Part shown: piece by piece, positions 19,150 to 55,199 of the stretch | How positions within the stretch are numbered: position 1 is the stretch's first letter | How the letters are laid out: each line of letters begins with the position of its first letter | DNA from: Glycera tridactyla | Lineage: Eukaryota | Assembly (NCBI GenBank): GCA_965644265.1 | Contig: OZ286470.1 | Location: forward strand, 65,782,001-65,846,000 | Direction of reading: 5' to 3' | Length of the DNA: 64,000 bases | Made by a program: the position numbers and the translations under genes | Notes under the pieces: generated by a model | What the model was told of the DNA's origin: nothing | What the model saw: the letters and a program-made list of their open reading frames with translations, nothing else | The model's database searches: none

Positions 19150-19204
19150 ATACCTCGACCCACATGTGGCGCATCATTTCCGATCTGGACGTTGCTGGTG
19201 AAAC

Positions 19205-19576
19205 ATGGCATCACTCAAGAAACATGCCACGGTGATTCGCGTCTTGAGCAAAGCCAAGCCGGGGTTGGTACGCAAGATTATCAAGTCGGCAGACAAGAGC
19301 TTGATCCACACACTGTGCGAGTGTTCTTTCAATGTTATAAAAGGACACGTTCCCATCACATCGTGTCAGAAGGAGAAACTCAAGCGACACAAGAAAGGCC
19401 TGCGAGAGTTGGTCAAAGCTGAAGTGTCCTTGAAGAAAAAGAAACACATTCTTCAGCGTGGCGGATTTGTTGGTGCCTTACGGGGGACACTGGTACCGCT
19501 CGCCATTGAAGGTATTTCAGCTGCGGTTCGAGCCAAGAAACGAAACGCCAAGAAACGAAGGAAGGGAAGAAAGTGA
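19205..19576 (+). CDS. Small basic Polinton protein (probable core/DNA-condensing protein)
   Basis: 123 aa, K/R-rich, CEC motif and LQRGGF protease-site-like motif; position between ATPase and INT. Confidence 0.75.
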   Translation: MASLKKHATVIRVLSKAKPGLVRKIIKSADKSLIHTLCECSFNVIKGHVPITSCQKEKLKRHKKGLRELVKAEVSLKKKKHILQRGGFVGALRGTLVPLAIEGISAAVRAKKRNAKKRRKGRK

Positions 19577-20262: not shown

Positions 20263-20263
20263 G

Positions 20264-21343
20264 ATGACGAAGAAAACGACCAAAACAGAGAGACGATGGC
20301 AGTCGATCTACTTTAATCCAACAAAAGAAGGAAGTCTCGGAGGAGTGCAGGCACTGAGTCGTGTTGCACGTACACATCCCCGTCAGACCCAGGCCTGGTT
20401 GGAAAAACAAGAAGCCTATACTTTGCACAAACCCATCACGCGTCATTTCAAGCGTCGACGTGTCATTGTCGGTGGCATCGATCATCAATGGCAAGCGGAT
20501 TTGGTGGACGTGTCGGCCCTGAAAGCCGCAAATGACGGTTTCACTTACCTGCTCACATGTATCAATGTCCTGTCCAAATATGCCTGGGTCTTCCCTCTCA
20601 AAGACAAGACGGGTCGGAGTCTAGTGAGGGTATTTACTCTCATTCTGAGAAAGGGACGTCAGCCGCAACGGTTACAGACAGACAAGGGAACAGAATTTAT
20701 CAATCGGATCTTCCAGGGTTTCCTAACAAAAGAAGGCATCGACTTTTTCACCATAGAAAATGACGACATCAAAGCCTGCATTGTGGAGTGTTTCAATCGA
20801 ACGCTCAAAACGAGAATGTGGCGGTTCTTCACAGCCAGAAAGACCTCGCATTACGTTGACGTCTTACCAGCCTTGGTCAAATCGTACAATGCATCCCACC
20901 ATCGCAGTATTGGAATGGCCCCCAACCAAGTGACTCGCAACAACAGTGAATCGGTATGGCAACATCTCTACGGGGAAAGGCGTCCAAAAGCAAAGCAATC
21001 CAGACTGCGTGTTGGGGACCACGTTCGACTTGGGAAGACCAAGCGTCACTTTGAGAAAGGTTACTTACCCGACTGGACGCAGGAAATCTTCTCCATTACC
21101 CGTGTGATAGAAAGCCTACCGGTCATGTACCAAGTGGTGGACGAGAAAGGCGACAAAGTGAGAGGCTTGTTCTATGCGGAGGAACTTCAGAAAGTCAAAA
21201 AGCCTCGAGTACATGCCATCGAAGCCTTCCTCGATCAGCGACGTCGTGGAGGTCGTCAACAGTATCTGGTCAAGTGGAAAGGGTACCCCAGTTCCATGAA
21301 TTCGTGGATAGATACCCGGAGCCTGCGAAAGTATAAAAGCTGA
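20264..21343 (+). CDS. INT: Retroviral-type (rve) integrase with C-terminal chromodomain
   Basis: WQADLVD, LQTDKGTEF, IVECFNRTLK (DDE); C-terminal IEAFLDQRRRGGRQQYLVKWKGYPSSMNSW chromodomain; intact 359 aa. Confidence 0.96.
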   Translation: MTKKTTKTERRWQSIYFNPTKEGSLGGVQALSRVARTHPRQTQAWLEKQEAYTLHKPITRHFKRRRVIVGGIDHQWQADLVDVSALKAANDGFTYLLTCINVLSKYAWVFPLKDKTGRSLVRVFTLILRKGRQPQRLQTDKGTEFINRIFQGFLTKEGIDFFTIENDDIKACIVECFNRTLKTRMWRFFTARKTSHYVDVLPALVKSYNASHHRSIGMAPNQVTRNNSESVWQHLYGERRPKAKQSRLRVGDHVRLGKTKRHFEKGYLPDWTQEIFSITRVIESLPVMYQVVDEKGDKVRGLFYAEELQKVKKPRVHAIEAFLDQRRRGGRQQYLVKWKGYPSSMNSWIDTRSLRKYKS

Positions 21344-21373
21344 GTGCGCCTGACCACGGGGTCCATTGTTCCA

Positions 21374-21667
21374 ATGGATTTGCCAGGAGAAGGTGTGAGC
21401 CGCAGCAGCAGCACCCGTGCCAGCCGGACGGATTGGATGTTGTGTGGACGCAAATTTCCTCGAAGCGAAGTGGTCTTCTTTTGTCAGACTATCATTTTGT
21501 ACATTGTGATCCTGGTCAGCTTGTACAATTTGTCACGTGGACACAAGAATAGCACCCTCTGGACAGCCCTACTGAGTGGCAGCCTTGGAGTCATCACACC
21601 ACCGCCAGACATCACCACCAAGATCCGCCTGAAATGTAGTGACGCCAGTGCCCTCAGTCAAGTCTGA
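21374..21667 (+). CDS. Small two-helix membrane protein of Polinton
   Basis: Hydrophobic VVFFCQTIILYIVILVSLYNL and LWTALLSGSLGVI segments; lies between INT and penton. Confidence 0.65.
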   Translation: MDLPGEGVSRSSSTRASRTDWMLCGRKFPRSEVVFFCQTIILYIVILVSLYNLSRGHKNSTLWTALLSGSLGVITPPPDITTKIRLKCSDASALSQV

Positions 21668-21671
21668 TAGC

Positions 21672-22433
21672 ATGTTCTATGTCACGTTACCGAGCAACAG
21701 CTCGCTAGCCTACTTCCCCGAGAACACGCTCACTCATTATCGAGTCCGTCTACCACGGACTATCAACCTCGACGGTGAATGGGAAGTCGGACTGGCAGAA
21801 ATCCAGTACCCACACAGTTGGTACGACCTGCACGGCACTGCTTGTCATCTACGTGTGCGTTCCAAACCTGAACGGAATGAGCCCATAGACGAAATCCTTA
21901 CACTCAGTGAAGGATACTATGCCAGTGTGACCACGTTGGTCAGTTGCATCAATCACCAATTGAAATATAAGTGTAAGATGAATGTGACCAGATTCATGTA
22001 CGACAGCATCACGCAGAAAGTGGCGCTTCGCATCCCGGCATCTATGGAAATCAAATTGGACCCCAGTCTTCATTGCCTGCTGGGCTTCGACGAGAAGGAA
22101 GAGTGGCTGAGTCATACGCACTGTCATGGTGAATATGTTGCCGATTTGAGCCAAGGGTTCCATAACCTGTACGTGTATGCCGATATTGTCGAACCTCGCA
22201 TTGTCGGCGACAGTATTGTACCACTTCTGAGGATCGTACCCATCAAAGGAAACAACGGCGACGTGGTGGACGTCGTGTACAACCCCATACACTACGTCCC
22301 ACTCCAATTGAAGCATTTTCAGTTGGTGGACGTGTATATAAGGGACGATGCAGGTGAACAGGTCCCATTCGAACGTGGTAAGGTTGTGTTGACACCTCAC
22401 CTGAGACGTCGTCCTTTGCTCTCACAACGATGA
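21672..22433 (+). CDS. Minor capsid protein (penton, single jelly-roll)
   Basis: MFYVTLPSNSS...ENTLTHYRVRLP..I.LDGEWEVGLAEIQYPHSW and LYVYADIVEPRIVGDSIVPLLRIV, hallmark Polinton mCP motifs. Confidence 0.9.
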   Translation: MFYVTLPSNSSLAYFPENTLTHYRVRLPRTINLDGEWEVGLAEIQYPHSWYDLHGTACHLRVRSKPERNEPIDEILTLSEGYYASVTTLVSCINHQLKYKCKMNVTRFMYDSITQKVALRIPASMEIKLDPSLHCLLGFDEKEEWLSHTHCHGEYVADLSQGFHNLYVYADIVEPRIVGDSIVPLLRIVPIKGNNGDVVDVVYNPIHYVPLQLKHFQLVDVYIRDDAGEQVPFERGKVVLTPHLRRRPLLSQR

Positions 22434-22873
22434 TGGACATGGAAGCATACTACAGTCAGCAAGTAGGCAGTGGATTGCCCTTTTATGCGGGTGCCAGAAT
22501 GCAACGCGGTCATGGGCTCGGAAGTATATTAAGTGGCCTGTTCAGAGCGGCGGTCCCCCTGATCAAGAAAGCTGCGGTGCCAGCACATAAGACAGTTGCC
22601 CGAAAAACGGCAGCATCCGGTGTGAGGGCATTGAAGAAGCAGGCACTCAAGACAGGCGTGAGGCTTGCTTCCGATGCTTTGAGAGGCCGGAGCATGAAAG
22701 ACGCCGTCGAGTTTCGCATCAAGGAGGCAGGCATGGGCCTGCTGGGAAAATCTATAAAAAGAAAGACCCCCACACAGACTGCCAGTCGGCGTCAGACCAA
22801 GCGGAAGAGAACATCTTCGGGCAAGAAATCGAAGCGATCAGCCAAGAGAGTCAAGCGTGACATATTCGACTGA
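22430..22873 (+). CDS. Basic core protein (adenovirus pVII/pX-like)
   Basis: YYSQQVGSGLPFYAGARMQRGHGLGSILSGLFRAAVPLIK then a K/R-rich tail; directly upstream of the MCP. Confidence 0.75.
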   Translation: MMDMEAYYSQQVGSGLPFYAGARMQRGHGLGSILSGLFRAAVPLIKKAAVPAHKTVARKTAASGVRALKKQALKTGVRLASDALRGRSMKDAVEFRIKEAGMGLLGKSIKRKTPTQTASRRQTKRKRTSSGKKSKRSAKRVKRDIFD

Positions 22874-22874
22874 G

Positions 22875-32666: not shown

Positions 32667-33580
32667 GGCTGGCTACCGGTCTGTTGTATTGTATGCTGCG
32701 AGGGGCGGTCGAAGGTACGGATCACCAAATTCGTCGCGTTCTCCTACGTTTCCTCCTCTTCAATATGCTTCAATAAAGTGATGTGGAGTCTACCTCTCTT
32801 CTTCGTGTTTTCACTATGAACTACTAGTGTTAGAGTGTCACTATAATTCACAAGAGTTCCTGTATGTGGGGGTAGAGTGTATACAAGGTATAACACAACT
32901 CGCTTGAATAGTGATGTATAAAGCAGGCCGTTAAGCTCTACTCAGTGAGGTACTGGATCTTCATGGAGTCGATGTTGTAGCCGTCCGTCTGGTGGTCCGT
33001 CCCCTTCTATGCCCCTGGGTATAACGTCTGGTAGTGCCCGAATTGCAGTACCCCGATTTCTCGATTTTCTGGGGATTTTATAGTAAAGTGAGGTATGCCG
33101 TTTCTAAGCATACCTCGGCCAATTCTGACGTATGCGTGGCATGAGTCGTATTGGTGACTAATAAGGTGTCCGACATGATCGGGAGGTGCATTCCTCACCG
33201 TCTGGGACCATTTTTGGGTTCCTGGGACCCGGCAGTGCCGAGATATTGACCTACAAAACCTACGGCACTTGACTACAGTAAATAGGTCAATTTTGACGTA
33301 GGACCGGCAATTTGGCTTGTTCAATGCCTTATATAGAATGTTCTTGACCAATTTCCAAGAAATCCGGTGGTTCTGGCGCTTGTAGCTCGTATGATAGCCG
33401 CTACTGCGCTTCGAACCTGGTACCCCCTCTAGGAAGTATTGGTCTATTAATATTTGCAGCGTCAGACTGGCCATGGGCTAAGCCGCGCTCAGTCTTTTGC
33501 CCGCTAGCTTTCGTTCCAATCGGACGTATGTATGCTAGCTCTTCAGGAATCATATATATCAAGTGAGTGGCTCCATAATA
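32661..33580 (-). repeat. 3' LTR (920 bp)
   Basis: TATTATGG...CCATAATA; matches 47675-48594 with about 4 substitutions seen by eye. Confidence 0.97.
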
Positions 33581-33582
33581 CA

Positions 33583-33595
33583 TGCTCCTGTTTTT
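33583..33595 (-). other. Putative polypurine tract
   Basis: Minus strand AAAAACAGGAGCA, 2 nt before the 3' LTR; short and imperfect. Confidence 0.45.
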
Positions 33596-34904
33596 AAGGA
33601 TTTTAGCCCTCTAAAATAAAAATGAAAAAAAAATAAAAAAATGATGAAAGATGCATAATCGTTATCATAAAATAAGTAAAATTATTTTGTGATTTTTGAT
33701 ACCCTTCTTTCCTTCTTTCTCCTTCTTCAAAGAAGACTGCCCCAGCTGTCTCCATGTTCAATCGTATGTAGGCGTCTCTGTCACATGTGTACCTCCTTTT
33801 CGAAGCCGCTCAACCCGAGTAATTTATTTTGACAATAATACAACAATAAATATATGAATAAATATGTGAATAATACATGCATTTTATTCACAATTTTGAG
33901 GTACGGCATGTCTCAAATCATTGGGTCCAATATTCCTACAACATCAGAATTTCACTCAGCATGCGTGTCTGTAATCGTGGTTCGTGTAGTATGCGTGTAT
34001 ATGTGTCTTCATGCTGTGTATAACTAGTAATAACGGAATTCACACACTACAAATGTATTCACTAAAATCCGACAATTTCGTAATTTATCAAGAGTGCACC
34101 CCGCCGACACACCCGACTTTTATCAGCACATCTTCAAGAATCCGCGACCGTGATTGGTCCAGTCGGTTTTGCGCATGTGTTCGTGGGGTCACTCCTTCAA
34201 AATTGACAAATTGTATCCCGAATCCGTTTGAAAAACGAAGTCTATCGTAGTTAGAGGCGTGAGAATCATAAGGTATGGCTGGTATTTCCTAACGAAATCC
34301 TTCTCCATATATCCTTCATTAATATGTGATAGTCGAGGCTCAACCCTTATCTGGCAGCTGCTAAACCCATCTACACCGCAGCTGACCTGAATATTTGCTG
34401 CGATCCCTCGAGAAAGAGTGATGGGCTTGTCTGGCAAACCACTCGTGTAACAAATTCATGGTTTCTCTAATGTGCATTCCTTGTGTCTAACAAGGGTACT
34501 GTGGGTATAAAAACGTCAATATAGACCCATTTACTATCTGGGGAAATTTATCAGGATCTTGTGCCATACCTGTCGTAGTATAATACCCCAAGTCTGGAGA
34601 CCAGACTTCACACTCTGCAGTTATGGGTCGTTCCCTCTGTATCATCAAACGTATCCTATCTGCCTACCTAAATGCAACCAGTCTTCATTACATAAATGAA
34701 ACTGGGCTCGCTACTACCATCGCCACGTCTACCGAGTATCCCCCTATGGATACAGATGAATGGTCATGGTTATGGTCATGGTTATGGGTCCTTATACCCA
34801 TAATCTTTCTTGCGTTTGCGTTGGTTGGTCTGGTTTGGGTTACATAGCGAGCATGCAAGAAGTCCCAGCCGGTAAGTACCGTTTTTCTGTCAATCAACAA
34901 CAAG

Positions 34905-34962
34905 TAACAATAAGTAACAATAAGTAACAGTAAGTAACGATAAGTAACGATAATTAACGATT
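34905..34962. repeat. 9-bp tandem repeat (taagtaaca/g) inside the retroelement
   Basis: About 6 direct copies. Confidence 0.85.
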
Positions 34963-35528
34963 ACCCCTAGTCTGTGTTTCTGCATGTGTGTTATCTGGCA
35001 TGGTGTATTGTGATATGTGTGGGTATAATCGTACCTGTATATCAGACTTCTTCAGGTTTTTGCTTCCGAACTGATCTGACTAATAGCCAGTCGTTCGTAC
35101 TAATCGTCATTGAAACTATCATCGTTACGAGCGGCTCGTGTCAGTGTCTGTATTATGACTTGTATATCGAGTTCCACGCGTTACCAGTCAAGCGTGTAAT
35201 CGTAGTCGCCCAGACCTTGCCTGGCTTTCTCGCTGCCCGTAACATGATCGTTTCACTCTGCGCTGGTTCACTAGTCTCTAGGCGATGCCGCCGAAACCAT
35301 AGGATCAGCTTCGTATAACAGTAGAAGTCATATTTGGTACATTCCTTTTTATGGGCTTGCGAGGCGAGCATTGTAATCACTGAATCGGTCCCCACGGCTG
35401 TTCGTAACTTCCATTTAGCCGAGGCGATCGTTAGGGTGTAAGATTACATTGCTCACCCAGCAGCATCTCCCCATGGGAATAAGTATTAGAACATGTATCT
35501 CAGTGGTACTCCATTCTCTGATCGTATT

Positions 35529-38400
35529 TCACTGGGAACAATTGCTTTTGAAACAGAATAAGTCTAATGATAAGATAATAAATCGTAAATCCTTCCATTG
35601 TTGACTAATAGCAGGCCTATTAGTCGTTTGTACCGCGATTTCCCGTCTTTCCATTATTTCGTAAGAATCTTCATCACTAACAGATGGTGGTGGAGGTATA
35701 TTCCTTAGAGCTGTTACGAGCGGCTCTATTGCTCGCGGATTTGATATGGGTGGCTGTAATGGCCTTTTTGCGATTTTGTTCCAAGTAGCCTTTTTATATC
35801 TGTATAGAAACCAGCCAGCTATCAATATGGCTGCTAGCAACGATACCGCTATTATTAGCACAATGAGTATCGTTAACCAGACACTTCTCTGCTTTCTCTG
35901 GTCGGTGTGGATCAGATTGAATGGGTTAAGGGTCCTTCCCTTCAATATTTCGTCCATCGCTTTATCCAGATCCATTCCGAAAGATATCATATCATCCAAG
36001 CCCAATTTTTCATCTTCTGTAGTAATATCCAAGGACGGTGTAGGGATGCTTATCTATCGATTTTGCATACCTATTCTTCGTGTATTCTACTAATAAATCC
36101 ATATTCAGTCGTCTCGATAATGCTGGGATATTTACAGGAAAATCGATTTCCTGCGACATTTGTCTGTCCATACATCCATGTATAATAGGTGATACTGACA
36201 ATGTCCTTCCCCGTCCGTCTGTTAACGTAACTTGACATGCACAATCCTGGCTGACCACACAAAACCTGCATCCTTCCCTAACCATTAACGCCCTTGTTGG
36301 ACAACCTATTTAAATGGTTTGAGCATTCATGACCAGCAACCTGCCTGGAGCCAATGAATGCACATCCATTATATCTTCGTCCATTTCCAGTCGATAGGAA
36401 CAGTGTTTTGCAATTTTCTCGTTGTCCCCAAGATATAAGCTCATGGCGCATGTTGGGTGGTAGGTATCATGGATTGTGGTCATTTGTTTGCAATGCACCG
36501 TATGTGATTTGGTACATTGGATGAAGTCCATTTCACTCATTTCCAAAAATCTAGTATTGTCTATGGATATACCAAAAATCTTGTTGGGCGTAACAGGCCT
36601 AGTTACCAAACTCGCATTTATTGTGGCGGGTACGCTGAAGGTGGATAGCTTGAACAGTTTGAAACTCGCATCTGTTGAACGTAGAGGAACCGTGATATGT
36701 ATTACCAGCTTGTTGTTTCTCCATGAGTATTCTGGCTTTGCATATTTATAATATGATGCTGGCCTCATATTCGCAACCCTAAACACAATAAATTCCTTCC
36801 TTACATGCTCATCAAGGTCTTCTAATGCCTTAAATAAGGTTTCCTCCGGTACTATCGTTGAAGACAGCTCATTTCGTAGTAGAGAACGTAGGCCGGTCAT
36901 GAAATTGTTCATTTCCCTTTCTACGATTGTTAGATCTTGTAGCAAGGTGGCTATCATTGAAACTGCGAACGATGTATATTGTACACTTGCATATAGCCTT
37001 TTATTCAGATTTTCTATGATCGTTGAAAATTTGTTGTCCACATGGTTAATAGCCTCTCCCATCTTTATGAGATGTTTGTTGTTGGTTTGTGCGAGTGCAA
37101 CCGCTTGTTTTTGGAAGGTAATGACTTTATCCGCCATATTAAATTGATTGTCTTCCAGTGTTTTCAATGCCTTGTGTATGTGTTTGGCTTCATCTTGGGT
37201 TACTACGCCAAATAGCGAATTCAGAATTTTTCCTCCAAAGTTGAACAATCCTCGTTCCTTCCTTCTCTTGGTGTCACCTGGATTGTACTCTGTGGCCTGT
37301 ACTTGCTTTATGATGATTCCCATTTCTCGTATGTCAGTTTCGGTTGTTTTCATAGCAAATACCACTGAGTCAATCAATTCAATGAAGTCCGTATCGTCTG
37401 GTGTGACTTCCGAAGTCTCTCGTCTCTGCCTTCTTCCTTGTTTTGGTTCCGAAGTCTTGATTCTATTGAGTTGATTTACGTAGTATGTACGTAACTCATT
37501 TGCCATAGCTTGGAATCTATCTGTTAAGTAGTGGACATGACCGCATATATAGGCTCCCTGCGATTCCCATTCTGAAGTACCTTTCGTTCCATGTCCTTTG
37601 CATTTGCCATCGTACGCATGCCTTATGTTTCTCAGGCTTCTCTCAGCTTCTTCTAACGTGACATTCCATTTGCCTTTTATAACTTCGTCTGGCGTTATCC
37701 TGGGATCATAAGGGTTCGTGATATTTTCTAATTTAGCTAGGGCTGTCCCAGCTTCCCATATACCCCTCATAATGATATTGTCCTGTCTTGGAGTATCTTC
37801 GACGTATAAAGCTTCCTTTAATGTATTCAAAGCTGCTTTGAGTGAAGTGATGGATCTTCCCATCTTGATTTTCTTCATTGTCGTAGATCTTTTTGTTCTG
37901 ATTCGTGCATTTGCTCCGTAATCCCATCGTGCGTTAGTCATCATCTCATGTAGTAGATCCATAGATATAGCGGTTCTGGTTGCCTTGATTTCATTCAAAA
38001 TTCCTTTTAGATACATACATGTTTCGTTGTTTGTGTCTTCTTCAATGTTTTCACCCAGACATTGATGCCATTGAAGGCATTCTCCATTCTGGTTCGTAGC
38101 ACATTGAGTATGATTGTTCACGTCTGTGAACATAGTAGGGATGTTCACAATGAACATCAGGTTGAAGGTCGCTGTCGTAGGGATATAGTTACCCTCTATA
38201 GGTGAAAAGTGAGCCCCATAATTTAATCTTTCAACTGGATTCATCCCAGTCGAATCAAGAAAATCCTGGTTCTGGTTATCGCTTGCATCTTGTTGTGGAC
38301 TTCCCATAGCTCCACACCATGAGAGTATCATAAGTAATATCATCAAAGAGCAGTCTTCTCCAATGATCCATCTTTGGTGCCGCTTTGGTCTATTCACCAC
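35529..38400 (-). pseudogene. env: Envelope glycoprotein, class I fusion, baculovirus-F/errantivirus type; one in-frame stop and one frameshift
   Basis: Signal SLMILLMILSWCGAMG; KRRKER|GLFNFGGKILNSLFGVVT fusion peptide; heptad region; Cys-rich segment continues past TAA 36310-36312 (GCRFCVVSQDCAC); frameshift ~36050; TM VWLTILIVLIIAVSLLAAILIAGWFLY. Confidence 0.92.
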
Positions 38401-39005
38401 TGCAACACATAAAGAGGGGATAGGGACCCATAAATACCTGTGCCTAGGCCGACTTATTGACAGTATAATGGATATTATAATTGTCTAGAACTTTTCTAAC
38501 AGACTGTGATGTAGTGTAGGGCGTTGTCATACAACAAGGATAATCATAAAATTTTTATATAAATTCATGATTTCTACTGTGTGTTTGGATCCGTTTCAAT
38601 GGAATGTCGGCCTGATGCGGCATTTTTACAGGTTCCCTATTTCTCCCTATTTATCATAGGCGTTTGCCTTTCCTCTTTGCTCATTGCGTTTACTGTCTCT
38701 TTCTATGGCAACCGCTCCGGTTTGACCAATACCCTTTTCGCGCGTCCGTGTTCCTTCACCTTGGTGAATCCACACCTCGATTTGTATATTTTCTGATACT
38801 CTCTCGTAATTCCCTGGGCTCCATTTGCTCGAAGCTGCTCCATCATTTGTTAATATGAGGGAGGTATGGGGTTACCTCCCTCTTATCCCGCCCCTTGGGC
38901 TCCCATGGGACCTTCAGGCTTATTTCCTGGGCTTGCTCATCCCCTTTACCCCTGATTTCCATCAGTTGTAAATCTTACTTCGAAGAGGCAACATCAGTAT
39001 CCATA

Positions 39006-39629
39006 ATGTCATCTCAGAATATCGTGGTGGCTTGTATCAGCCAGTTCTGTTCAAACGGAATAGTGGGAGTCCACTATGACGAGGAGCGAAGGGAACTACG
39101 TATTTATAGTGGGAGGGTCTCTACCAGTTATGATGACCACATTCTGGATGAAATACGTAGTTTCATTCGAACAAGGGAGATAGTTGGCTATTACTTTGAT
39201 CAAGAACAATGCCGTGCTTCACTAATTGTTAGATTCAATGGTGGCATTGTCGTTAATAATGCAAGAGCCGGTGCCTATAGGCGCAATCATGGTTGCTCTA
39301 ATTCATCTGAAGAGCACGAAAATGAGCCTGACAGCAATGAACCAGCCTCTCCCTATGTTGTGAATCAGGATCCTAGGAGGGTTCCTGTTCGGATGTGGCC
39401 GAATTTCGTCCATAGAAATTCTGCCCCTCGTATAGTGGTGCGTCCTAACAATCTGTCACGTCCTGAAGGACGCAATATCGTCGGTCGTGAGGTGAGTGTC
39501 TCTTTTTTATACTCTTTTTTTGTTTTTATTATCGTGCTTTCAGTTCCTTCAGCAACTTCCTCTTCTCTATACGAGCATTGTAGTCCCGTATGTGTTCTAT
39601 TGGCACGATATCAGCCCGTAGCCATGTAG
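39006..39629 (+). CDS. Antisense ORF of unknown function in the pol-env spacer
   Basis: Open frame 38895-39629, ATG at 39006, mostly outside pol; internal repeat IVGVHYDEE / IVGYYFDQE; consensus donor GAG|GTGAGT at 39491/39492. Confidence 0.5.
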   Translation: MSSQNIVVACISQFCSNGIVGVHYDEERRELRIYSGRVSTSYDDHILDEIRSFIRTREIVGYYFDQEQCRASLIVRFNGGIVVNNARAGAYRRNHGCSNSSEEHENEPDSNEPASPYVVNQDPRRVPVRMWPNFVHRNSAPRIVVRPNNLSRPEGRNIVGREVSVSFLYSFFVFIIVLSVPSATSSSLYEHCSPVCVLLARYQPVAM

Positions 39630-42600
39630 GCTTCTTGTCGCGCCACTCGCACATGTACGAAACCTTTCCATTCTTCGTTGTGGACGTTATGACTTTTACT
39701 AGTTTCGACATGTCCGGTGTGCTCGCCTTGCTATCATTCTTCGGTTTGAAGCTGATTTCTGGATCAGTACTAACTATATCTGTGTTTGACTTATTGTTTC
39801 TTTGCGCATGTTCTCTATTCACAAACGTTCTGTCTCGCTTTCGTCGCCTGGTTACAGGCTGGATGTTTGGAAGGGTAGAAGTTTCAGATTCCATACTTTC
39901 ATTGTCTTTTTCTCTGTGTGATTTTGCAGTTTTCTCTCTATCTACTGTATTTTTCGTATTTCCAATTGTCCGTTCCGGAGTTGCATTCTGTCCGTCCTTC
40001 TTGGTCCTTTCGGTCCCTCTCAGGGTAGAATCCGCCTCCGGTGTGAATTTCTTCAGTCTATTTTCTGGTATTAGATGTTTGAGGTTATGATTGTTGATTC
40101 GTAGTAAGTGGAAACCTGGCTTCGGAGTTGAGACTATGATGAAAGGCCCTTCGTATTTCTGGCTAACTTTGTATTGCGAAGGAACCCTAGGGGTTACTAT
40201 TTTTGCCCAAACCATATCTCCTGGTTTGAAACCTTTGTATGTAACCTTCTTGGCTGTATCGTGACGCATTTTCATGTTTTCCGCATTTTTCCTGACATTT
40301 CTGGCTGCTATGTGTCGTATAGCCATTAAATCAGGCCATATTGAAGGAAAAACTTCTTGTGGTGGGACATCTCGAATTATTGGAGGTTCTTTCGTTATGT
40401 CACCGGAGAGGGTTGGTTCTAAACCATACATGATTTCATAGGGTGCAAATCCATGAGATTTGATGGAGATATCATGAGACCAACGAACATGAGGCAAAAA
40501 TTCCGTCCATGATTTTTCAGGAAATTCCATCATGCATGCTCGTAGTGAGCAGAGAATACTAGAATGTAGTCGTTCCACTGCTGCATTGGCCTGAGGGTGC
40601 CAGGAGGTTATATACTGTAGTTTGATACTAAATTGTTCTGCCAGGTATTGAAAGGTTTTAGACATGTGAGCTGCCGCTCTGTCTAATACGACCACCTTTG
40701 GAGGTCCAAATCTTTGAATCCACATCTTCATAAAATATGTAGCCAGGGTTTCAGCCTTTTCATTTGGAATAGTTTCGATCTCAAAGTGTTTTGAAAATCT
40801 GTCTACGATAACTAGTACTTTCAGGTTCTTATCTTTCGTTGGTGCAACCTTTAAAACATCCATGTGTATTACTTCAAATAATGAAGCCGGTGGTCTTAAT
40901 AAAAGGGGTGTCCTTTTATTATTATAGTCCCTTTTAGCTTGACCGCAGGCTTTACAACTAGCCACAAATTTAGCCAAGTCTTCGTACATTCCTGGCCAGT
41001 AGAATCGTTGCCGAACGATTTGTAGTAGACTGTTGAAACCTCTGTGGGATCCATGTGTTCCATGGTGGAATAGTGCTGCTATTGCATACCTCCTAGCATG
41101 TGGTAAGTATATCTGGTGAAATGTTTTATTGCTCGTGTTGTTGTGGAATTTCCGGCATAAAATTCCGGAATTTGTAAGCAAATATTTGTCCTCTTCCGCC
41201 ATGATTTTTCTGGCATGAGTCAGAGTCTCTGGCAGAGATTTATTCAATTTATATTGATATAGGAATGACGAATCTCTGTCAGTGGCTTGTTCCAGCGCCA
41301 TTTTTCTTTCGTCTATCATATATTCTGTATATAACTTGATGCAAGCGTTTTCATCCAGTAGCAAGGCTTCCTCGTATGATATATCATCTGAATCCTCGAG
41401 GCCTAGTTGTTTTTCTTCTTTGTCGTATGATGAATCACCCTCACTGTCGGCTATGTTTTCGATCTCCGTCTCGGACATAACGTTCCCATCAGCGTCTTCC
41501 CCACTGCTAGTACACGATTCTTCCGCGTGGCGGCGAGCGCCTCGCTGGAAGCCGGTTTTGGCGGGAAAGGTGGGCGTGGCACTTTTCTCTCTTTGGCCAT
41601 GCTGTTTATCCGTTGTGTCGAACATATCGAATCGCCGCTCTCTGGCTTCACACTCAGATGAATCTATTTCATTGCTGGGCTTGTAAGGCTGTGTTCTGAT
41701 TCCCATTAGACATTCCTTTCTTGCCACTGGTGATTCCAAGAATTCTGTAGTATTGATAAGACAATGGTTGTCACCTTCTTCATCCATTGATAGCATAGGT
41801 TGTTCTACATAAGTTATTCTAGATAAGGTGTCGGCTACAACATTTTCTCTGCCTGGTTTGTGCAGTACACGGATATTGAATTTATTCAAAAACATTTTAT
41901 AACGAAAGAGCCTGCCGGTTCTAGTGGCCAGATTGTGTAGATATACATTTGTTAGATTATCAGAGAATACTGTGATATCTGTCTGAGAGCCTAACATTAG
42001 TTCACATTGTTTCAATGATTCTACGAGTGCTAGGGCTTCCTTTTCATTCGAATGGTAGTTTGCTTGTGACGGATTTAATGTCTTTGACATAAATGCTACA
42101 GGTCTGACTATATTTTCTTCATCTTCCTGCGATATAACTGCGCCTACTGCCCTACCGCTAGCATCTAGGTATACTGTAAAGGGTTTGGCAGGGTCAGGAT
42201 AGTATAGTACCGCATTTTGTAAAAGGGAGGTTTTTATACTGTCCAATGCTTCTTGGCATTCCTCGGTCCAGATAAATTCATGATCTTTCTGTAGGAGTTT
42301 GTTTATTGGTGCTGCTATAGCCGCATATCCTCTGACAAATCTACGATAGAAGTTGAGCGTACCCATTAACTGTCTCACTTCCTTGACATTATTAGGGGCT
42401 GGGAGCTTTATTAGCGCTCCTAATTTGTTAGGATCGGCTTTTACCCCATCCTTGTTGAAGATATATCCCAGATATTTAACCTCGGATTTCATGAACATGG
42501 CCTTTGAAGGCGATATACGTAATCCTACTTGCCTAAGTCTCCACAAAAGTTGTCTCATAACTTCTAAGTGTTTTTCATATGTAGGAGTGGTAACAATAAT

Positions 42601-44476
42601 ATCGTCCATATATGATGTGACGTATTTTGAGTCCAAAGTGGCTAAACACCTGGAGATGATGCTTGAGAATATTTCTGGGCTTGAATTTAGGCCCATAGGT
42701 GTTTTTGTAAAGGAGTATTTGGCATTGCTAGTATTTATCGTACAGATATCAATACTATCTGGTGCCAATTGAACTGCATAGAATGCTGAAGCCAGATGGA
42801 CTACGGAGAAGACCTTGTTTTTTCCTGCCGCTAAGGTGGCAATGATATCGTTAATTGTTGGTATTGGTGATTTTGAGGGAACTATCATTTTGTTAAGATT
42901 GGAAAAATCAACCACTAACCTGGGTTTGATGGGTTTACCATCATCATCATATTTGTATACTACAAAGGTGGGTACACCCCACATAGAATGCGATGGTTTC
43001 AGTATTCCTGCCTCTACTAATTTTTGAATTTGTTCATCTAAGTCCTTCTCCTGCTGTGGAGGTAACTTGTATGCTCTTTGATTTACAACTGTTGCTTCTG
43101 GCTTTATTTCTATCCTGTGATATACATCTTGTATGACTGCTAACTCACTCAGGTCTACGGCAAATGCCTCTCTGTTATTATCCAGAATAGATAATAATTC
43201 CTCTCTATATTCGTTAGCCGCAGGTTCCAACGATAATATATCGTTCCAAACGATAGGTTTGAAAGTTTGAATCCTAGTCTGGTTCGAAATGTCTACTTCT
43301 GTTTGAGTTGATATTTCTCTACTGTTATCGTATTCTTCCTCCACAACGAAAGGGGTGGAATAGTCCTGATGCGGCCACAATACTCGCAATGAGTTTATTT
43401 GTTCACCGCTACATGGAAGTGGCGCTGATGGTCTCGCTAATGCGGAACGTTCGCCTATGTATACAGAACCTGGCATTCCTCTCTCATTAGATGCAGGTCT
43501 GGCCAAGTGGGCTTGCGCAATGGTAATCTGCGCATCTGAATCTATATATACGTTCTTTGAAGTTGGATTCGAAACAGATACTAGGAATGTATTATTCTGG
43601 CTTCTGAAGGCAATCCCCGGAACCGTCGATAATTGTGGGGTATTCTTGATTATTTCATATGAAATATCTAAGGAATCTGGTTCTTTCATGTAGTTTGGGG
43701 TTATTGTATTCTCACTATCAGCAGTCATATCGATATAGCAAGAAATCATTGCGGTCTCCATAGGTTTCATAATCGTGGAATCTGATGCTTTCAATGTATA
43801 TGAGCATTCCTTTACAGTTGTCATCAATACGCTGGTGATACCTCCTTCTAGATGCAATCTGCTCTCTGAATAGTCAATTTTCGCCGCAGTTTGCTGGAGA
43901 AATGGTACACCTAGGATGACTTGTAAGGGTATGGCTTCCACCACGAGGAATCTGACTAATATTTCCTTACTATTAATAGTTACAGGAATACTCACTGATC
44001 CTATCACTTTCATTTTCTGTGCTTGCGCATCGTATAGTTCTACCTCGTGTTTCGTATCTATTTCTCCCCTTAAATCTAACTGTTTCAGCATGTCTTCTGT
44101 GATAAGATTAGTTGTAGCCCCATAGCCTACCATAGCCTACCATAGCCGCTATTTGTACATGTTTGATATATATTCTAATGGAGTTAAGTGTGCCTAGCTT
44201 CTGACGTATTCGGTTTCTATCACCTGTTGACAGCGTTAAGGATGAATTGACCCTCTCTTTCTTTGTCATGTTTCTATCATCTACTCCTTTGATACTATAC
44301 ATATGCCTACTACTGTTTCCTACGTTACTGCCACTACTAATATTTTTTTTATAAAATTTCACTACAAATTCTAACAGATCGCAATGATCAGGGAGCGTAT
44401 GCTCACAATCTATCCCTAATGGACAATCTACCCAATTAAATGCACTCGTGACCCTATTTACGACATGCCCTCTATC
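39529..44476 (-). pseudogene. pol: Pol polyprotein PR-RT-RNaseH-IN(+chromo-like); protease site disrupted by a 10-bp duplication
   Basis: PR ILGVPFL; RT PRLVVDFSNLN, YMDDII; RH YLDASG, EKEALA, SDN; IN HHCC, IHMD, VLDRA, VERLH, GPF; C-terminal YMCEWRDKKPTW. Frame continuous from 44476 once one catagcctac copy (44121-44140) is removed. Confidence 0.96.
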
Positions 44477-45639
44477 CTAGTGAGAAAAAGGGTTATTTGA
44501 CCCTATGTTTCCTGTCGGCCTTGGTCCCTGGGGAGTGTAACCCTGGGAATAGCCCTGGGAATATCCTTGAGAATATCCCTGCGGATTCTGCCCATTATAC
44601 TGTTGGCCCTGAGAATTAAACTGTCCCATGGTCTGGGTCTCTCTTACTTTATTGATGGCTTGAGCCATAAATCCGTCATGGTGCTGAGGATTAGTGATGT
44701 TGACATACGCCTTCATTACTTTGAAACAATTACCTGATGTGTGCCCAGGCTTTAAACATGCTTCACAGACAGGTGTATTTTTATCTATTTTCTTATTATA
44801 ATTATTATATGTTCCAGGCCCAGGCGTGCCCCAGGAGGGAGTCCCAGGCGGGGTCGAGCTCGACATCTGATTCAAGCTGGTGAGTCTCTTTTTGTGATCT
44901 CCGTTGGAGATCACTATGCTGCCACCCCTCTGTTCGAAATGCTTTCTAACTTCGCCGATTCTGACTCTTGAGGCTGATATAATCAAATGAATCATGATCG
45001 GATCTTTGTAAAAGGATCAAATGATCTAATCTAACACGATTTTAAGATGATTTACTGATCTGATTAACGACAATTTGAAGAAATGTAGCGATTACGTAAT
45101 GGGCATTTCGCCATACATTCGTTTTTGTTGCCGATCACCGAAGCACACAGACATGACCGCTCAGCTGCGCCCAAATAGTAAATGCCCGAATGCTGATCTC
45201 TGATTGGCTGATTTTACACATGCTGTCTACAACTCCATTCATAAATCGGCGCATTGATCATGAAACCTGGTAATGAGGTGCGAAGAAGAAGCACTACTTT
45301 ACTTCCCTACGAACTATCTTATCAACCAAAACACAGATTTTTCGAGATTTATACATGGAAGTAAGACAAATGGATGTCGGGGAATCAAGAGAGAGACAGA
45401 CAGACAGACAGAAAGACAGACAGACAGACAGACAGACGGACGATTTGGCAAAAGTAGTCCCGGCTCTGAACCTAATAAGCATGAATGAATTTCTTGCGAA
45501 CGCTTCTGTTTGTGATGAAATGTGGCCATAATGACACAAGACAAATCCACGGGTGGCTTGCTCATGACTCGCTACCCCATATTCCTGAAGGAGGGCTCGT
45601 CAGTACCCCCACCCGTCCGTCTTTTTCTCTGTGTCTGTT

Positions 45640-45703
<64 letters not shown>

Positions 45704-47647
45704 TATCATCGTCAGTGAGGTGGTGGTGGTTGTTGTGGTAGTAGAGGTGGTGGATATGAAGGTGGTGGTGGCGGTTGTGGTGGGTATGAAGGTGGTGGTG
45801 GTGGGTATGAAGGTGGTGCTGGTGGTGGTGGAGTTGCATGGTGATTGTTGTGGTGGTAATGGTGGTGGTGGTGGGTATGAAGGTGCTTTTGCCATTGCTG
45901 GTGTCGTCGTCGTCGTCATCATCGTCATCTCTCTCTTTCTCTCTCTTTCTCTCTCTTTCTTTCTCTCCCTCTCTCTCTCTCTACTTCGGAGATCTCTCTG
46001 CGCCCCTGGGCGCTCTTGTTACAATCCCTAGCTATGTGGCCTATCTTACCACAATGGTAGCATGTGATTTTTCTTCTAGTGTCTTGGTCCCCTATTGGTC
46101 CATTATTTATCAACTCCCTTATTGCATTCAAAAGTTCCTTATTTTCGGGCGATTCTTTCTCCTGTTTCTGAGGTACCTTTGGGTCTTCTGCCTTTTCTTT
46201 TATTATTGGTGCGGTTGATATGGCTGCAACTTTGTCCGTCAGTTGCTGCATTCTTTCTGGTAAACTGGATAGTGCCTCTGAACTGGGCAATCTTTTATCC
46301 AATTTATCCATAACTACACTGATAGTCGCATCCATTGTTGTCTCCGTAGCTATTTCTTCTAAATTTCCAGCAGTTTCCGCTGCTTCTAATACTGAGTCCA
46401 CGGTTAATGGATTTGCCATCAACATGTAGTTTTTTGCAACTGGGTTCAACCCAGATAAAATGATACTTTTGTATTCACCAAATTGCGCCTGATTAAAGGC
46501 TTGTCCTTGTTTTAATTTGAATAAAAACCTACATTTATTCACTATCCTCATACAAAATTGTTTAGGTGTTTGTGCTGCACCCTGTTTGGTTTTATACAAT
46601 TTAGCCCTAAAGGCAGGCTCACTGTTTCCCTGCACACAGTATTCTGCAAGGAATCTTCTTTCTATTTCCTCGAAAGAAGTGTCTTTTGTGACATGGACAG
46701 TGGAGTACCATTGCTTCACTGTGTCACTGAGGTTAAATGGAAAGTGTCTGACCTTTTCATAGTCAGAGAGTCCGTGTAATGCACAGTATTCATTGAATAG
46801 GTCCAACCATTCAATGGGATTGTTTTTGGCTTAAAATTGCTGCACCTTGACTAGACTCTTATCTTTTACTACAAAAGTGTGCTGAGCTTGAGGCATAAAA
46901 TTCGGTGGTTGTGTAGAGGGTGGGCCATGGATGGCCATGTTATGTTCCACCAGTCCTGTTTTTGGACGGGTACCTGTCCCTAATGGGACGTCCTTAGGTG
47001 TGCTTGTCCTTGCATCAAAAGATGTGTGATCAATGTTCGACAAAAATGGATCATAAGCTTCTGGTATTCTATATGTGTAGCGAGGGGGGGGGGGGATAAT
47101 ATGCGTTGTCAAAAGAATGTAATTCACCTGTCCTTCTTCGAGATGAATTCCTTCCCGTGACTTCCCTTGGCGTATTTCCTTGACTTCTATTTTCCTGGGA
47201 CATAATCCCTGAATACCTGTTTTCTTGTAGTGTAATCCCTGAATTTCTGTTATCCTTCTGTTTCAGAGCCTTTGAGAGTCGCTGATGTATAGCATCCTGT
47301 ACGGACTCCTCATCGCCGCCATCTTCACTGCTTAGATCCCCACCATCCTCTGCATCCGTGTCCTCTTCATCGTCTTCTTCAGCCGCTTTCTCCCGATCTT
47401 CTTCAATCTGCCGCTTGTCAACGTCTTCTGCAGCTTCTTCGCCATCTTTCCCTGCAATTTCTTGATTTTTGGACAATTCTTTCCCTGCTTTTCTTGTATT
47501 TTCGTCATCGGACATGCTCGCTTGCGCCGCTTGGCTTTTGAATGTCACCTCGCCGCCGCTATCGCCTTCCATATCACCTAGCTCTTCAGCCCGTACGATC
47601 GTCGTCGAACGTGTCGTGTCCGTATACGTTTTAGAAGTCTGTTCCAT
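44477..47647 (-). pseudogene. gag: Gag with acidic N-terminus, capsid domain and two CCHC knuckles; disrupted
   Basis: ATG 47647; frameshift in G12 run 47084-47095; TAA 46831-46833 in VQQF*AKNNPIEWLDLF; CYHCGKIGHIARDC and CEACLKPGHTSGNC; 1-kb insertion; TAG 44477-44479. Confidence 0.92.
44980..45981. mobile_element. 1002-bp microsatellite-rich insertion in gag flanked by TA
   Basis: TA at 44978-79 and 45982-83; removing 1004 bp restores in-frame ISEV-SASRVRIGEVRK. Contains (GACA)n, (CT)n and (GGT)n. Confidence 0.85.
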
Positions 47648-47658
47648 TGTATCATCGA

Positions 47659-47672
47659 CAGCTTCTCCACCA
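47659..47672 (-). other. Primer-binding site, probably tRNA-Ala
   Basis: Minus strand TGGTGGAGAAGCTG 2 nt after the 5' LTR; complementary to the ...CUCCACCA 3' end of eukaryotic tRNA-Ala. Confidence 0.75.
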
Positions 47673-47674
47673 TA

Positions 47675-48594
47675 TATTATGGCTGGCTACCGGTCTGTTG
47701 TATTGTATGCTGCGAGGGGCGGTCGAAGGTACGGATCACCATATTCGTCGCGTTCTCCTACGTTTCCTCCTCTTCAATATGCTTCAATAAAGTGATGTGG
47801 AGTCTACCTCTCTTCTTCGTGTTTTCACTATGAACTACTAGTGTTAGAGTGTCACTATAATTCACAAGAGTTCCTGTATGTGGGGGTAGAGTGTATACAA
47901 GGTATAACACAACTCGCTTGAATAGTGATGTATAAAGCAGGCCGTTAAGCTCTACTCAGTGAGGTACTGGATCTTCATGGAGTCGATGTTGTAGCCGTCC
48001 GTCTGGTGGTCCGTCCCCTTCTATGCCCCTGGGTATAACGTCTGGTAGTGCCCGAATTGCAGTACCCCGATTTCTCGATTTTCTGGGGATTTTATAGTAA
48101 AGTGAGGTATGCCGTTTCTAAGCATACCTCGGCCAATTCTGACGTATGCGTGGCATGAGTCGTATTGGTGACTAATAAGGTGTCCAACATGATCGGGAGG
48201 TGCATTCCTCACCGTCTGGGACCATTTTTGGGTTCCTGGGACCCGGCAGTGCCGAGATATTGACCTACAAAACCTACGTCACTTGACTACAGTAAGTAGG
48301 TCAATTTTGACGTAGGACCGGCAATTTGGCTTGTTCAATGCCTTATATAGAATGTTCTTGACCAATTTCCAAGAAATCCGGTGGTTCTGGCGCTTGTAGC
48401 TCGTATGATAGCCGCTACTGCGCTTCGAACCTGGTACCCCCTCTAGGAAGTATTGGTCTATTAATATTTGCAGCGTCAGACTGGCCATGGGCTAAGCCGC
48501 GCTCAGTCTTTTGCCCGCTAGCTTTCGTTCCAATCGGACGTATGTATGCTAGCTCTTCAGGAATCATATATATCAAGTGAGTGGCTCCATAATA
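47675..48594 (-). repeat. 5' LTR (920 bp)
   Basis: Direct repeat of 32661-33580. Confidence 0.97.
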
Positions 48595-50487
48595 TATATA
48601 TATATATATATATAAATGTACAAAATACAAACTGATGCTCCGATACAGGACTGTTTCCAGGTTGACGAAATTCAGTTTTTCAAAGTCAAAGTCTGTTCTG
48701 CCGATGGGAGAGTGGCTGGAAAAGTTTGTTTTTTTCCTGTGAAGACATGTGGCATACGTTGATGACATATGTTTGTGTTACGTCATCAATATCAAAGCAA
48801 TGTGGGTGATCAAGGGACACGTGTTTCGATCGACTCAGATCAAAGCTACGATCTCGTGACACTGGAGCCGCATCCTACAGGAAGTTGATGGAAGACCTAC
48901 TTGTACTTGTGATGGACTCATCCTGCCAGCGGATGTTATGTTAAGAATGATATTCGGATGCAACAAATACGATTACAATACGCTATTTGATCTATCAGAT
49001 GAGTGAAGGCCCTCATCCATCATGGATGTTGGTCATGCTATCTGGAATTTCTATCGACTCCAAGTACAGCTTAAGCTGTCCATAGAGGCCATCTTCGGTC
49101 GCATCAAAAGGTGGCCTTTGTAGGCAGGTGACCTTTACAGAGAGGCCACTTCGAGAATACTATCACGGTCGCGGTCATGATAGTATTTTCAAGTGTAAAT
49201 GAGCTCTTCTCAAATGTACGAGAATTTAGAGTTTCGTTTCTCATTCTCACCAGAATTTTCTGACCCGGGGGAGTCTTGAATGATTCCACTCATGCTTATT
49301 GCATGGGTATCTTAATTTAGTCCAGAAGATGTTCGCAGCACATCAACCAACCAACCAACTGCCATGTCTTTGGACAAAATAGGGCGAGGGGTGGGGTGTG
49401 AAAGGAGGTTTTACCATACTCATCTTCCCTTGCCTCACAGCAGCCCCGGGCTCGATGATCCGACCTGATTGCATGACCTAACCATGACAGCTATTAGATG
49501 CTCCTAATCATGGAGTCAGGCCGATGGCTGTCTCCCTGCCTCCATTAGGGGTAGTAGGCATTGGAATGAGCTAGATGAACTTATCAAAACAACAGACAAT
49601 GTCAAATCCCTACCCTAATACTTGAATACATGTGAGAAAGAGAAAATGACAGGTCTTTGGTCAATTTGCAAATAGACGAAGTGCTGTGCATTATCCCAAA
49701 CTCCTCATCTTTCTTTTTTTTTTTTTTCGTTGTGTTTCTTGCTGGCCATATATGTATTGAATATCTGTCAATAATTCATGTTGCAGCTTGTATTTCATTG
49801 TCAGTTGCACGTATATTTCTAATGAGTTTTGTTTTCTTAGGTTGTCAGATATGGGAATATATCTCAGAGGAAAAATAAAGTTTGAAAAAAAGCAAATTCA
49901 AGAGTGACTTAAGTCATCACTTTTGATTGTTTTGGGAGAAATATCAAAATCAGCATCTATAGACTCCAACCATGACCACTGATCTACACTTTCATGGTAA
50001 GCATGCAACCACACATGAAGAAAACAAAGAGCATTATTTTAGTATATCATATGACACACGCTTTGCAGATGATCAATTTCACATTCAACACCATGGAAGA
50101 TCACACCATGAACTCGACATATCCCACCTCTTTTGGAATATATCCAAACCAGGTGATTCTTTCACATGAAACATCTTTATTCACACAAATGTAAGTCGTT
50201 TCACAAGCAATCGTGGTCAATGAACATAACTTCATGTAACACATACATACATACAACACGAGACTGGTATAACTTATTACAATCATGGAGAACAGGGTAA
50301 CGTAAATGTAGATATTGTAAACCGTAGAAGACAGGCAATAATTAATATAGAGATACTCAATAGGTGTGGTTCTATGGATTGTTAGGTCGGGAAATCGTTT
50401 TAGCTGCTGTGTGGCTTCCTTGAGTTTGTTACACCAGCTTCGTAAATGAGATTGTGTGGTACACCTACTTAGTAAATACTCGACGAA

Positions 50488-51290
50488 TCACATCCTATAA
50501 ATGATCTTTGCCTGGCTCTTGGCAGTTGACAGACATTGGCTGCTGCGAAAACCATCAGGGCTGCTGTTCCATAGTTTGGCGCCCCTGTATGTAGCGCTAC
50601 CTGTCGCAAATTGAGTATGGAGTCTCGGGATGGCAAGGTCATTTCTCACCGTTTGACGTGTTTCTCTACTCGATAAGGCAGATCGCTGTTGTATCAGCCC
50701 TGATAGTTGCGAGCTTCCAATGCCATTTACCATTTTATATGTCTCCGTTAGGAGATGTCGGTTCCGTAGTGTCGACAGGTAGGGTACATTCAGAGTTGTA
50801 TGACATTTGGTTGCAGAGTATGCCTGTGGATTATTCCGTACTACCCTGAGACATCGGTTTTGTAGCATTTGTAGCTTGTGTCCCATCATTGTCCCCATAC
50901 CACCATAAATATAGTCACAGTAACAGATGACTGACTGTATGAGGGAATGATATAAGAAAAGTGCCCTCTTCTCGGTGATATATGGACGCAGATGAGACAG
51001 GGCAGACAGCCGATGATTGATCTTTGTTGAGTGAGCAATATGTTTCTCATAAGGGAGCCTGGGGCACCCCACATGTCACTGGCATTCCGCTGGAGATTAT
51101 GTTCTCGAACTTGGTAGATTGGGTACGGTCAGATAGATATGAGCTTAACCAATCAATGGTACTGCGACGAAAGCCTATCTCGATAAGTCTTTCCAATAAA
51201 CAGTTATGATCAACTGTGTCAAACGCCTTCTTCAGATCCAGGAAGAGGACACATGGGGTGGTGAACCAATATACATTCTCGCATCACCTA
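50488..51290 (-). mobile_element. 5'-truncated, internally deleted CR1/L2-type LINE RT fragment, inserted (~49990-51396) into the dispersed repeat
   Basis: LFLDLKKAFDTVDH...LSSYLSDRTQ...TCGVPQ, then LYHSLIQSVICYC...LQNRCLRV...YRGAKLWNS. Confidence 0.88.
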
Positions 51291-52254
51291 TCAACCATCA
51301 GCCATAGAATTGGAATCTCCAGGATAGTAAGTCACAAACAATATAGTCACTCTCCAATCAAAAGGATACAAAATGAACAAGAGCGCCAAGACACAGCGGA
51401 GAATTCGTTTAATTTGCAGTCTCATGGGTGAAACAGCACCACAATTTGGCAGCTCTGTAGAAATCGAGATAATATGATGAATATTCACCAGACAAGAGCC
51501 AAATGTCAAGCTTTATTACATGGATATGACATTTTCAGTAAAGTATCAGGTGTTGAGTATTGCGTGTGATACTTCACGACTGGATGAGAACTACTTTTTC
51601 ACAATTTCTGCTCTGATTAATGTATTAAATGCAAGACTATATGACCATGAGGTACAAATGCAATAACAGACTCAGTGTGAATTTCTCCTATCCTTACATT
51701 TGGGAAGCACCTCGTGTACATGACCCACAGTGCAGGAGTGTAGCCAGACAGGTACAATATAGACCGCTCGCAACTCCTAAATGTGATAATCTTCCTCACA
51801 GAGGAACAGTACTGTGGGACCCTTTTTTTTCGGAGGTTAAGGGTCCGCGATGGTAGGTGAAATGATGTGAAATACACAGAAATTCAAGGTGTCATATCGG
51901 GTCACCTTCACTGAAAGTGGGATTGGTGTTAAGTGGACACCGCCGTCGGTGTCATCAACTGGTGCCCAAAATAATTCCAGTCCTGGCATTAGGCCAACGC
52001 CAGAAATCTGGCGTTAGGAGAAGACCATCAGAGAGATAGGAGGAACACCTGATAAGGTATATCAGTTAATCCAGTTAGGTGTATCTGAGACACCAGTGAA
52101 CAGATTTGGGCTATACCTGTATGGTGTTATGGTGACACCAATTGGAGTGATGGTCAGAATGGGCAGGGGGTCCTCCATTTGCTTCGAATGCATGTCATGT
52201 TTTGTCGTGTTCATATTCCATTTGACAGATGCACATACTCTCACACACATGCAC

Positions 52255-55030: not shown

Positions 55031-55199
55031 GTGAGACTGATTTTTGCAACGCTTCCATCTCGTAGTTGCTTTCGACCATATCTCGGCTTTGTATTTGTTC
55101 GTGTTGCACATATATTGTTTAAGTACTCACAATGTAACAACAGAGCAACCAAGTCAGCAATCCGACAACACCGGCGCCCATGAACAACACATAAACCCA

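Follow-up and report, generated by a model that had tools for sequence, protein, structure and literature searches.

The minus-strand element described here is best read, with a probability of about 0.82, as a recently inserted and now defective copy of an env-carrying Ty3/gypsy element of the chromodomain-bearing 'ancient errantivirus' kind, carried by a non-insect invertebrate that is most likely a lophotrochozoan. It lies within a 64-kb window (the whole stretch of DNA that was analysed), where gag, pol and env follow one another between paired long terminal repeats (LTRs), together with a primer binding site (PBS) and a weak polypurine tract, and where Pfam domains appear in gypsy order (zinc knuckle, protease, RT, RNase H and integrase), as expected of a Ty3/gypsy LTR retrotransposon. 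The env product matches the Pfam domain Baculo_F with 51.1 bits, the cutoff being 24.1 (E 1.1e-13), which bears out the proposal of a preliminary description that an F-type envelope is encoded by a gypsy element. The novelty which that description implied finds no support: F-type env gypsy elements outside insects have been documented in bulk, with 1,512 env-carrying Ty3/gypsy elements reported from most animal phyla (Chary and Hayashi, eLife 2026; PMC13524379) and none from echinoderms or sponges in that survey. The existence of env-bearing gypsy elements outside insects is already a published idea, and such elements have been described in worms, molluscs and corals.

In the operational sense of Chary and Hayashi, an errantivirus has an F- or gB-type env beside gag-pol inside LTRs, which is the arrangement found here. 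The window copy lacks the intact ORFs that they also ask for and, being broken, would fail the filters of their survey (PMC13524379), whereas its relatives have long uninterrupted ORFs. Since gag, pol and env are broken here and open in relatives, we regard the window copy as a defective member of the group.

Structure of the element and its insertion site

The coordinates of the element and its parts are collected in Table 1. The two LTRs have 4 mismatches over 920 bp, which suggests a recent insertion. Their termini are TATTATGG...CCATAATA, i.e. TA...TA rather than TG...CA. Ends of the form TATTATG...CATAATA occur in the window copy and in two related metagenome contigs (L002 and L003), while the 3' end deviates in two others (L001 and L005). 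The PBS has the counterpart TGGTGGAGA in L002, L003 and L005 and TGGTGGAGC in L001. By visual comparison with the 3' ends given for Ala in supplement 1 of PMC13524379, the site fits a tRNA-Ala-like primer, and Ala-type sites are likewise found in several annelid, mollusc and coral rows among the 'ancient errantiviruses' of that source. No tRNA or Rfam match was found in the 64-kb window. At 15.9 kb, the element exceeds in length the survey rows with which it was compared (PMC13524379).

All three runs of at least five TA units in the window sit at the two junctions of the element, which may reflect a target preference for (TA)n, as judged from a single insertion (n = 1), the related contigs having no visible flanks.

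Two antisense frames accompany the coding genes. The first, in the pol-env spacer, contains splice-like motifs (acceptor-like at 38965, donor-like at 39492), and when the spacer was shuffled by dinucleotides, 1 of 2000 shuffles reached its 223 open codons; no relative was found in Pfam, in the ten related contigs (L001-L010) or among viral contigs. Antisense ORFs are on record for plant elements (PMC7264820). The second is a decayed TM-like frame in the 3' untranslated region (about 34460-34871, plus strand), with three stops and a strong donor-like site at 34872, for which the ORF listings of L001-L010, the scope of that search, gave no relative.

Table 1. Positions of the element and its parts in the window
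Feature	Position	Strand	Details
Ty3/gypsy element	32661-48594	minus	15,934 bp
5' LTR	47675-48594	minus	920 bp; pairs with 3' LTR
PBS TGGTGGAGAA	47663-47672	minus	2 nt past 5' LTR
gag, broken	44477-47647	minus	zf-CCHC, E 2.2e-7; terminal TAG 44477-44479
gag CCHC knuckles	about 46068-46018 and 44779-44708	minus	
gag/pol junction, putative readthrough site	44460-44482	minus	CAN, in-frame stop, G(A/C)(C/T)AGR context
pol	39529-44476	minus	PR, RT, RNase H, disordered acidic linker, 'mini' domain (by model), IN, chromodomain-like tail
Chromodomain-like domain	about 39730-39540	minus	Pol C-terminus
Antisense ORF in pol-env spacer	38859-39629	plus	256 codons stop to stop; 207 aa from ATG 39006
env piece 1	36310-38343	minus	677 aa; ATG 38343; Cys-containing head; premature stop 36310-36312
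RKER and fusion peptide	37263-37207	minus	
Fusion peptide GLFNFGGKILNSLFG	37251-37207	minus	aa 365-379
env piece 2	36043-36309	minus	Cys-rich region; frame unchanged after stop; frameshift near 36043-36055
env piece 3	35529-36053	minus	membrane-proximal helix, TM, cytoplasmic tail
Long 3' untranslated region	33581-35528	minus	closes in weak polypurine tract 33595-33581
3' LTR	32661-33580	minus	920 bp
(TA)n tract, 3' junction	32619-32660		other half 48595-48614

The env gene and its product

The preliminary description had listed a furin site, a fusion peptide, heptads, a Cys-rich region and a TM, and all of these are present on the minus strand. The span that it took as env therefore stands with respect to its features, but not as a single ORF, since the premature stop and the frameshift given in Table 1, neither of which it mentioned, divide the gene into three pieces. 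Four intact Env relatives align over both breaks, so these pieces represent one broken gene in which the TM has been severed from the ectodomain; the second piece was delimited by tblastn with four Env relatives (P0124, P0125, P0127 and P0128) and the env of L001.

The first piece begins with a short, hydrophobic, signal-like N-terminus. Directly before the fusion peptide stands KRRKER, a minimal R-X-X-R and not the canonical R-X-K/R-R, while canonical furin-type sites lie upstream at aa 149 and 305, within an enlarged helical F2. Long helices are predicted downstream of the fusion peptide, and three of the seven heptad registers reach 58-62% hydrophobic residues at a/d against a background of 44%, a modest signal. 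Four cysteines fall in aa 610-648 and six more in the second piece. The TM (about 35880-35800) has a hydropathy peak of 3.27, and the third piece is homologous to relatives at E about 1e-6. A basic site, a glycine-rich fusion peptide, heptad helices and a TM together compose the predicted layout of a class I (F-type) fusogen.

Homology to baculovirus F (PF12259) covers aa 324-651, starting shortly before the fusion peptide and taking in the head. Baculo_F also scored above its cutoff in five of the eight relatives scanned, and the nearest ESM Atlas cluster is 75% Baculo_F (score 0.96). The Env model itself has poor confidence (pLDDT 52.8), and Foldseek returned mixed matches with TM at most 0.22 among those at E<=0.001; because the model is poor, we treated this fold search as weak. 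Its top match, A0A145VUZ2 from an abalone herpesvirus (E 9e-10, TM 0.15), is an uncharacterised protein and possibly F-like, the Env model being too poor to say.

What precedes the fusion peptide sets this Env apart from baculovirus F, with ~360 residues and extra basic sites. Across the clade of the window element, the fusion peptide is found at about aa 290-445, whereas its median position in 64 distant relatives is 120, and upstream R-X-K/R-R sites occur in every clade member with an N-terminus (8/8) against 7/64 of the distant relatives. These 64 were taken from 86 distant matches of at least 700 aa, out of 138 distant rows, and the tally is a rough pattern, the fusion peptide being misplaced in 3 of 9 clade rows. 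An enlarged Env part before the fusion peptide, with extra furin-type sites, would on this pattern be a family trait. In RSV F, double cleavage releases an internal peptide, which may offer an analogy for the additional sites.

Relatives of the element

An exhaustive HMMER search with Env gave 1,166 relatives at E<=1e-3, whereas a word-index search gave none. The best seven are 36-42% identical, and five of them (P0124, P0125, P0127, P0128 and P0129) have an uninterrupted full-length env with a C-terminal hydrophobic stretch. That Env frames stay long and open at ~40% identity across the clade implies that function has been selected for. Looking up 20 of the Env relatives gave one named species, the snail Littorina saxatilis (28%), and viral contigs yielded no Env relative.

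Five Pol relatives are 57-65% identical over RT-RNase H, followed by one at 42% and others at 36% or less. The ten metagenome contigs L001-L010, from three record prefixes, belong with the window Pol in the same group (53-60% identity). Prokaryote genomes contained no Pol relative, and viral contigs matched Pol at 24-29% only. An env shares the contig with a window-type Pol in three of the five contigs longer than 6 kb: uninterrupted in L001 (881 aa), cut in L002 and decayed in L003. Only env fragments are seen at L003:12012-13100, beside uninterrupted gag and pol, which indicates that at least one relative can do without env. In both L001 and L002, env precedes gag, and the single LTR between them in L002 led us to read this order as the product of a circularly permuted assembly.

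In a tree of RT-RNase H, the window element and nine of these relatives make up a clade of 10 rows supported by an SH-aLRT of 100; three named insect Pols lie elsewhere, as do chromovirus-like rows from fungi and algae. The 55 rows of the tree include 47 of the 120 listed Pol matches, 4 loci and 3 outgroups. The RT phylogeny that the preliminary description had proposed as a check thus separates the element from the named insect Pols, in a tree that includes no verified errantivirus.

Pol and the probable assignment to the ancient errantiviruses

The survey divides env-carrying elements into an 'insect' kind with a pseudo-RNase H and an 'ancient' kind with RNase H and a mini domain (PMC13524379). 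An AlphaFold model of the corresponding bridge in the window Pol contains one RNase H, a disordered linker, and then helices and three short strands (pLDDT 83-97), and no pseudo-RNase H. As a model matched to the verbal description in that paper only, this is consistent with RNase H plus a 'mini' domain. The integrase carries a GPF motif and is followed by a C-terminal tail that is putatively chromodomain-like, with a weak match in Pfam: the window's own Pol tail gave no Pfam match, and Chromo matched the tail of one of four members (E 0.026). A profile built from four Pol tails matched the solved chromodomains of cpSRP43 at E 1.5e-8 for the whole chain and 0.0009 for the single domain.

The survey also describes a clade, drawn from cnidarians, molluscs and annelids, whose elements bear a chromodomain. 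By our own count of its sheet, a chromodomain is present in 28 of 139 rows, all from annelids, molluscs, cnidarians, a nemertean, a hemichordate or a rotifer, and in none of the 56 arthropod rows (PMC13524379). The window element resembles the 'ancient errantiviruses' of this source in its gag-pol-env order, its F-type Env with furin site and fusion peptide, its probable RNase H plus mini domain and its chromodomain-like tail.

The Drosophila errantiviruses (gypsy, ZAM and Idefix) likewise have an Env homologous to baculovirus F and LTR ends other than TG/CA, and two of their three subgroups prefer TATA or ATAT targets, but their ends are AGT...AnT and they are without GPY/F (PMC5408687), as opposed to the TA...TA ends and GPF found here. 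They also have a pseudo-RNase H and mostly Ser or Lys primers (PMC13524379), in contrast to the predicted mini domain and Ala-like PBS of the window element. That it is not a typical insect errantivirus, as had been surmised, agrees with all four of its GPF motif, TA...TA ends, lack of a pseudo-RNase H and chromodomain-like tail; on these features the element departs from the insect type and fits the ancient, chromodomain-bearing kind.

The host and neighbouring DNA

CpG o/e in the flanking DNA is 0.52-0.55, which suggests a methylated genome. A methylated, CpG-depleted genome is unlike those of holometabolous insects, while some hemimetabolous insects and crustaceans are likewise CpG-depleted and microsatellite-rich, a point that counts towards an arthropod host. 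Two tandem receptor guanylate cyclase genes lie at 762-9433 and 54778-64000 (plus strand), the first with its TM, kinase-homology and cyclase parts in one 2-kb exon. The tested cyclase is 40-45% identical to sequences from many phyla, and placozoan, hemichordate, coral and oyster matches rank above the first insect, which stands at 59 of the 120 listed. In a quick tree of 62 sequences picked for taxon spread, it formed a long branch that grouped only with nine sequences of similar length.

If the host were an insect or other arthropod, the element would be either an insect-borne member of the ancient group or an ordinary errantivirus. The ESM Atlas clusters nearest to Env are indeed mostly arthropod, and the ancient group includes some insect elements with the mini domain (PMC13524379), but the chromodomain-like tail, which no arthropod row shares, the GPF motif with TA...TA ends, the bridge without a pseudo-RNase H and the ranking of the cyclase matches all run against such a host, and we consider it improbable. 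The non-insect host of the preliminary description is, on this indirect evidence, probable. Among non-insect hosts a lophotrochozoan is favoured, while an echinoderm is improbable; were the host an echinoderm, the element would extend the group to a phylum for which the survey lists no member.

The window contains further repeats. A Maverick/Polinton, the 320-bp terminal inverted repeats of which match with 100% complementarity, occupies 12821-29718 and encodes pPolB, an A32-like ATPase, an integrase with chromodomain, an adenovirus-type protease, probable capsid proteins, zinc-finger ORFs and a weakly matched Bcl-2-like ORF (E 7e-4). Stops and frame changes interrupt both PolB and the probable major capsid gene. 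Copies of a short MITE-like element with the ends ACAGTC(G/A)AACC...GGTT(C/T)GACTGT are found at 7130, 11504, 32255 and 59714-59878. Blocks on either side of the LTR element (30475-31203 and 49667-51825) are 87-91% identical, which suggests an older local duplication.

The gag/pol junction

In five of five elements (the window copy, L001, L002, L003 and L005), gag closes with one in-frame stop, immediately followed by the pol frame, and the context CAN-stop-G(A/C)(C/T)AGR is conserved across them. The simplest reading of this junction is that Gag-Pol would be made by stop-codon readthrough. MuLV, Candida Tca2 and soybean SIRE1 likewise have one frame on both sides of a single stop and a purine-rich 3' context (PMC2194720), but the window junction, where readthrough is putative, differs from theirs in that no pseudoknot-like stable fold was detected among the nested folds computed. 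Indeed, no stable RNA fold was found 3' of the gag stop in any of the five elements (z -0.64 to +1.09, nested folds only), a result that also suits a different origin of Pol, namely from a spliced RNA or an internal start, with the in-frame stop merely ending gag.

To this alternative, which concerns the junction only, we assign a substantial but minority chance. The gag stop of the window copy resembles a good splice acceptor (a pyrimidine tract and TAG|G), and the comparable junction of Tca2 gave no readthrough in yeast reporters (PMC2194720). The four relatives, however, have no pyrimidine tract at the gag stop, and one of them has TGA. Moreover, the frame behind the stop is open into the protease in all four, and the first post-stop codons keep a (D/A)-R-x-(H/R)-(V/I) pattern despite synonymous changes.

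Damage to the window copy

About seven lesions are distributed across gag, pol and env, and as judged from its sequence the window copy is non-autonomous. In gag, there is a frame change within a G run near 47085-47095, an in-frame stop at 46831-46833 and ~1.1 kb of extra simple-repeat-rich DNA that separates the two CCHC knuckles, the starts of which are 60-73 aa apart in the four relatives examined (4/4). In pol, the protease motif is disrupted where the frame changes at a 10-bp tandem repeat (near 44110-44140), and RT has a non-acidic residue at its first catalytic position, in contrast to five of five close relatives. With gag, RT and env broken, the suggestion of a potentially infectious element does not hold for this copy.

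Some of these breaks could be assembly errors, or the element as assembled could be a mosaic of several copies, the true locus being intact. About seven lesions are rather many for LTRs that diverge at 4/920, one break falls within a homopolymer, the window has N gaps, and the neighbouring Maverick combines identical terminal repeats with split genes. The lesions are nevertheless varied and mutation-like, comprising two nonsense codons, a catalytic missense change, the 10-bp tandem repeat and the 1.1-kb extra stretch, and the 2-kb exon of the host cyclase is unbroken; a copy that was defective before being mobilised in trans would likewise account for the excess. We therefore think assembly artefacts unlikely as the explanation and prefer genuine damage to the element.

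The first 677 codons of env are open, as they might be had the host domesticated env as a syncytin-like or restriction gene. Given that env sits inside a young full element, has two breaks within itself and shows no sign of better preservation than pol, we attach next to no credence to domestication.

Proposed life cycle and significance

In intact members, transcription would start in the 5' LTR, reverse transcription would be primed by tRNA-Ala, and Gag-Pol would be made via readthrough of the in-frame stop. Integration would be directed to TA-rich sites through the TA...TA ends of the LTRs, perhaps with help from the chromodomain. Env would be expressed from a subgenomic RNA, with a candidate splice acceptor at 38400, and after cleavage at two or three basic sites would serve as a class I fusogen, carrying particles between cells. 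On the model of Drosophila gypsy, this spread would probably lead from soma to germ line; the survey itself states the transmission route outside Drosophila as unknown (PMC13524379). The window copy could produce at most a secreted ectodomain without an anchor, and would be mobile only with proteins from other copies.

The main text of PMC13524379 nowhere mentions readthrough, frameshift, microsatellite, target site, antisense or splice, so the junction, the LTR ends and the antisense ORF are not described there. Our search of the literature, outside of which lay subscription papers, Repbase and the sequences on the authors' GitHub, found no account of readthrough or TA targeting for this group and, within the same limits, none of these family traits for env in annelids or molluscs. 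We tentatively raise the idea, against which the odds presently lie, that these elements form a distinct env-gypsy sub-lineage, with Gag-Pol made by readthrough as in gammaretroviruses, (TA)n targeting, and an F protein whose ~200-residue helical insert is released at the extra furin sites. As F-type env gypsy elements were already shown across most animal phyla by the 2026 survey and the window copy is defective, the interest lies in the family traits. If confirmed, these would add to the record an animal gypsy lineage in which the stop codon between gag and pol is conserved, LTRs whose ends are non-canonical and may target microsatellites, and an F protein with additional sites for cleavage.
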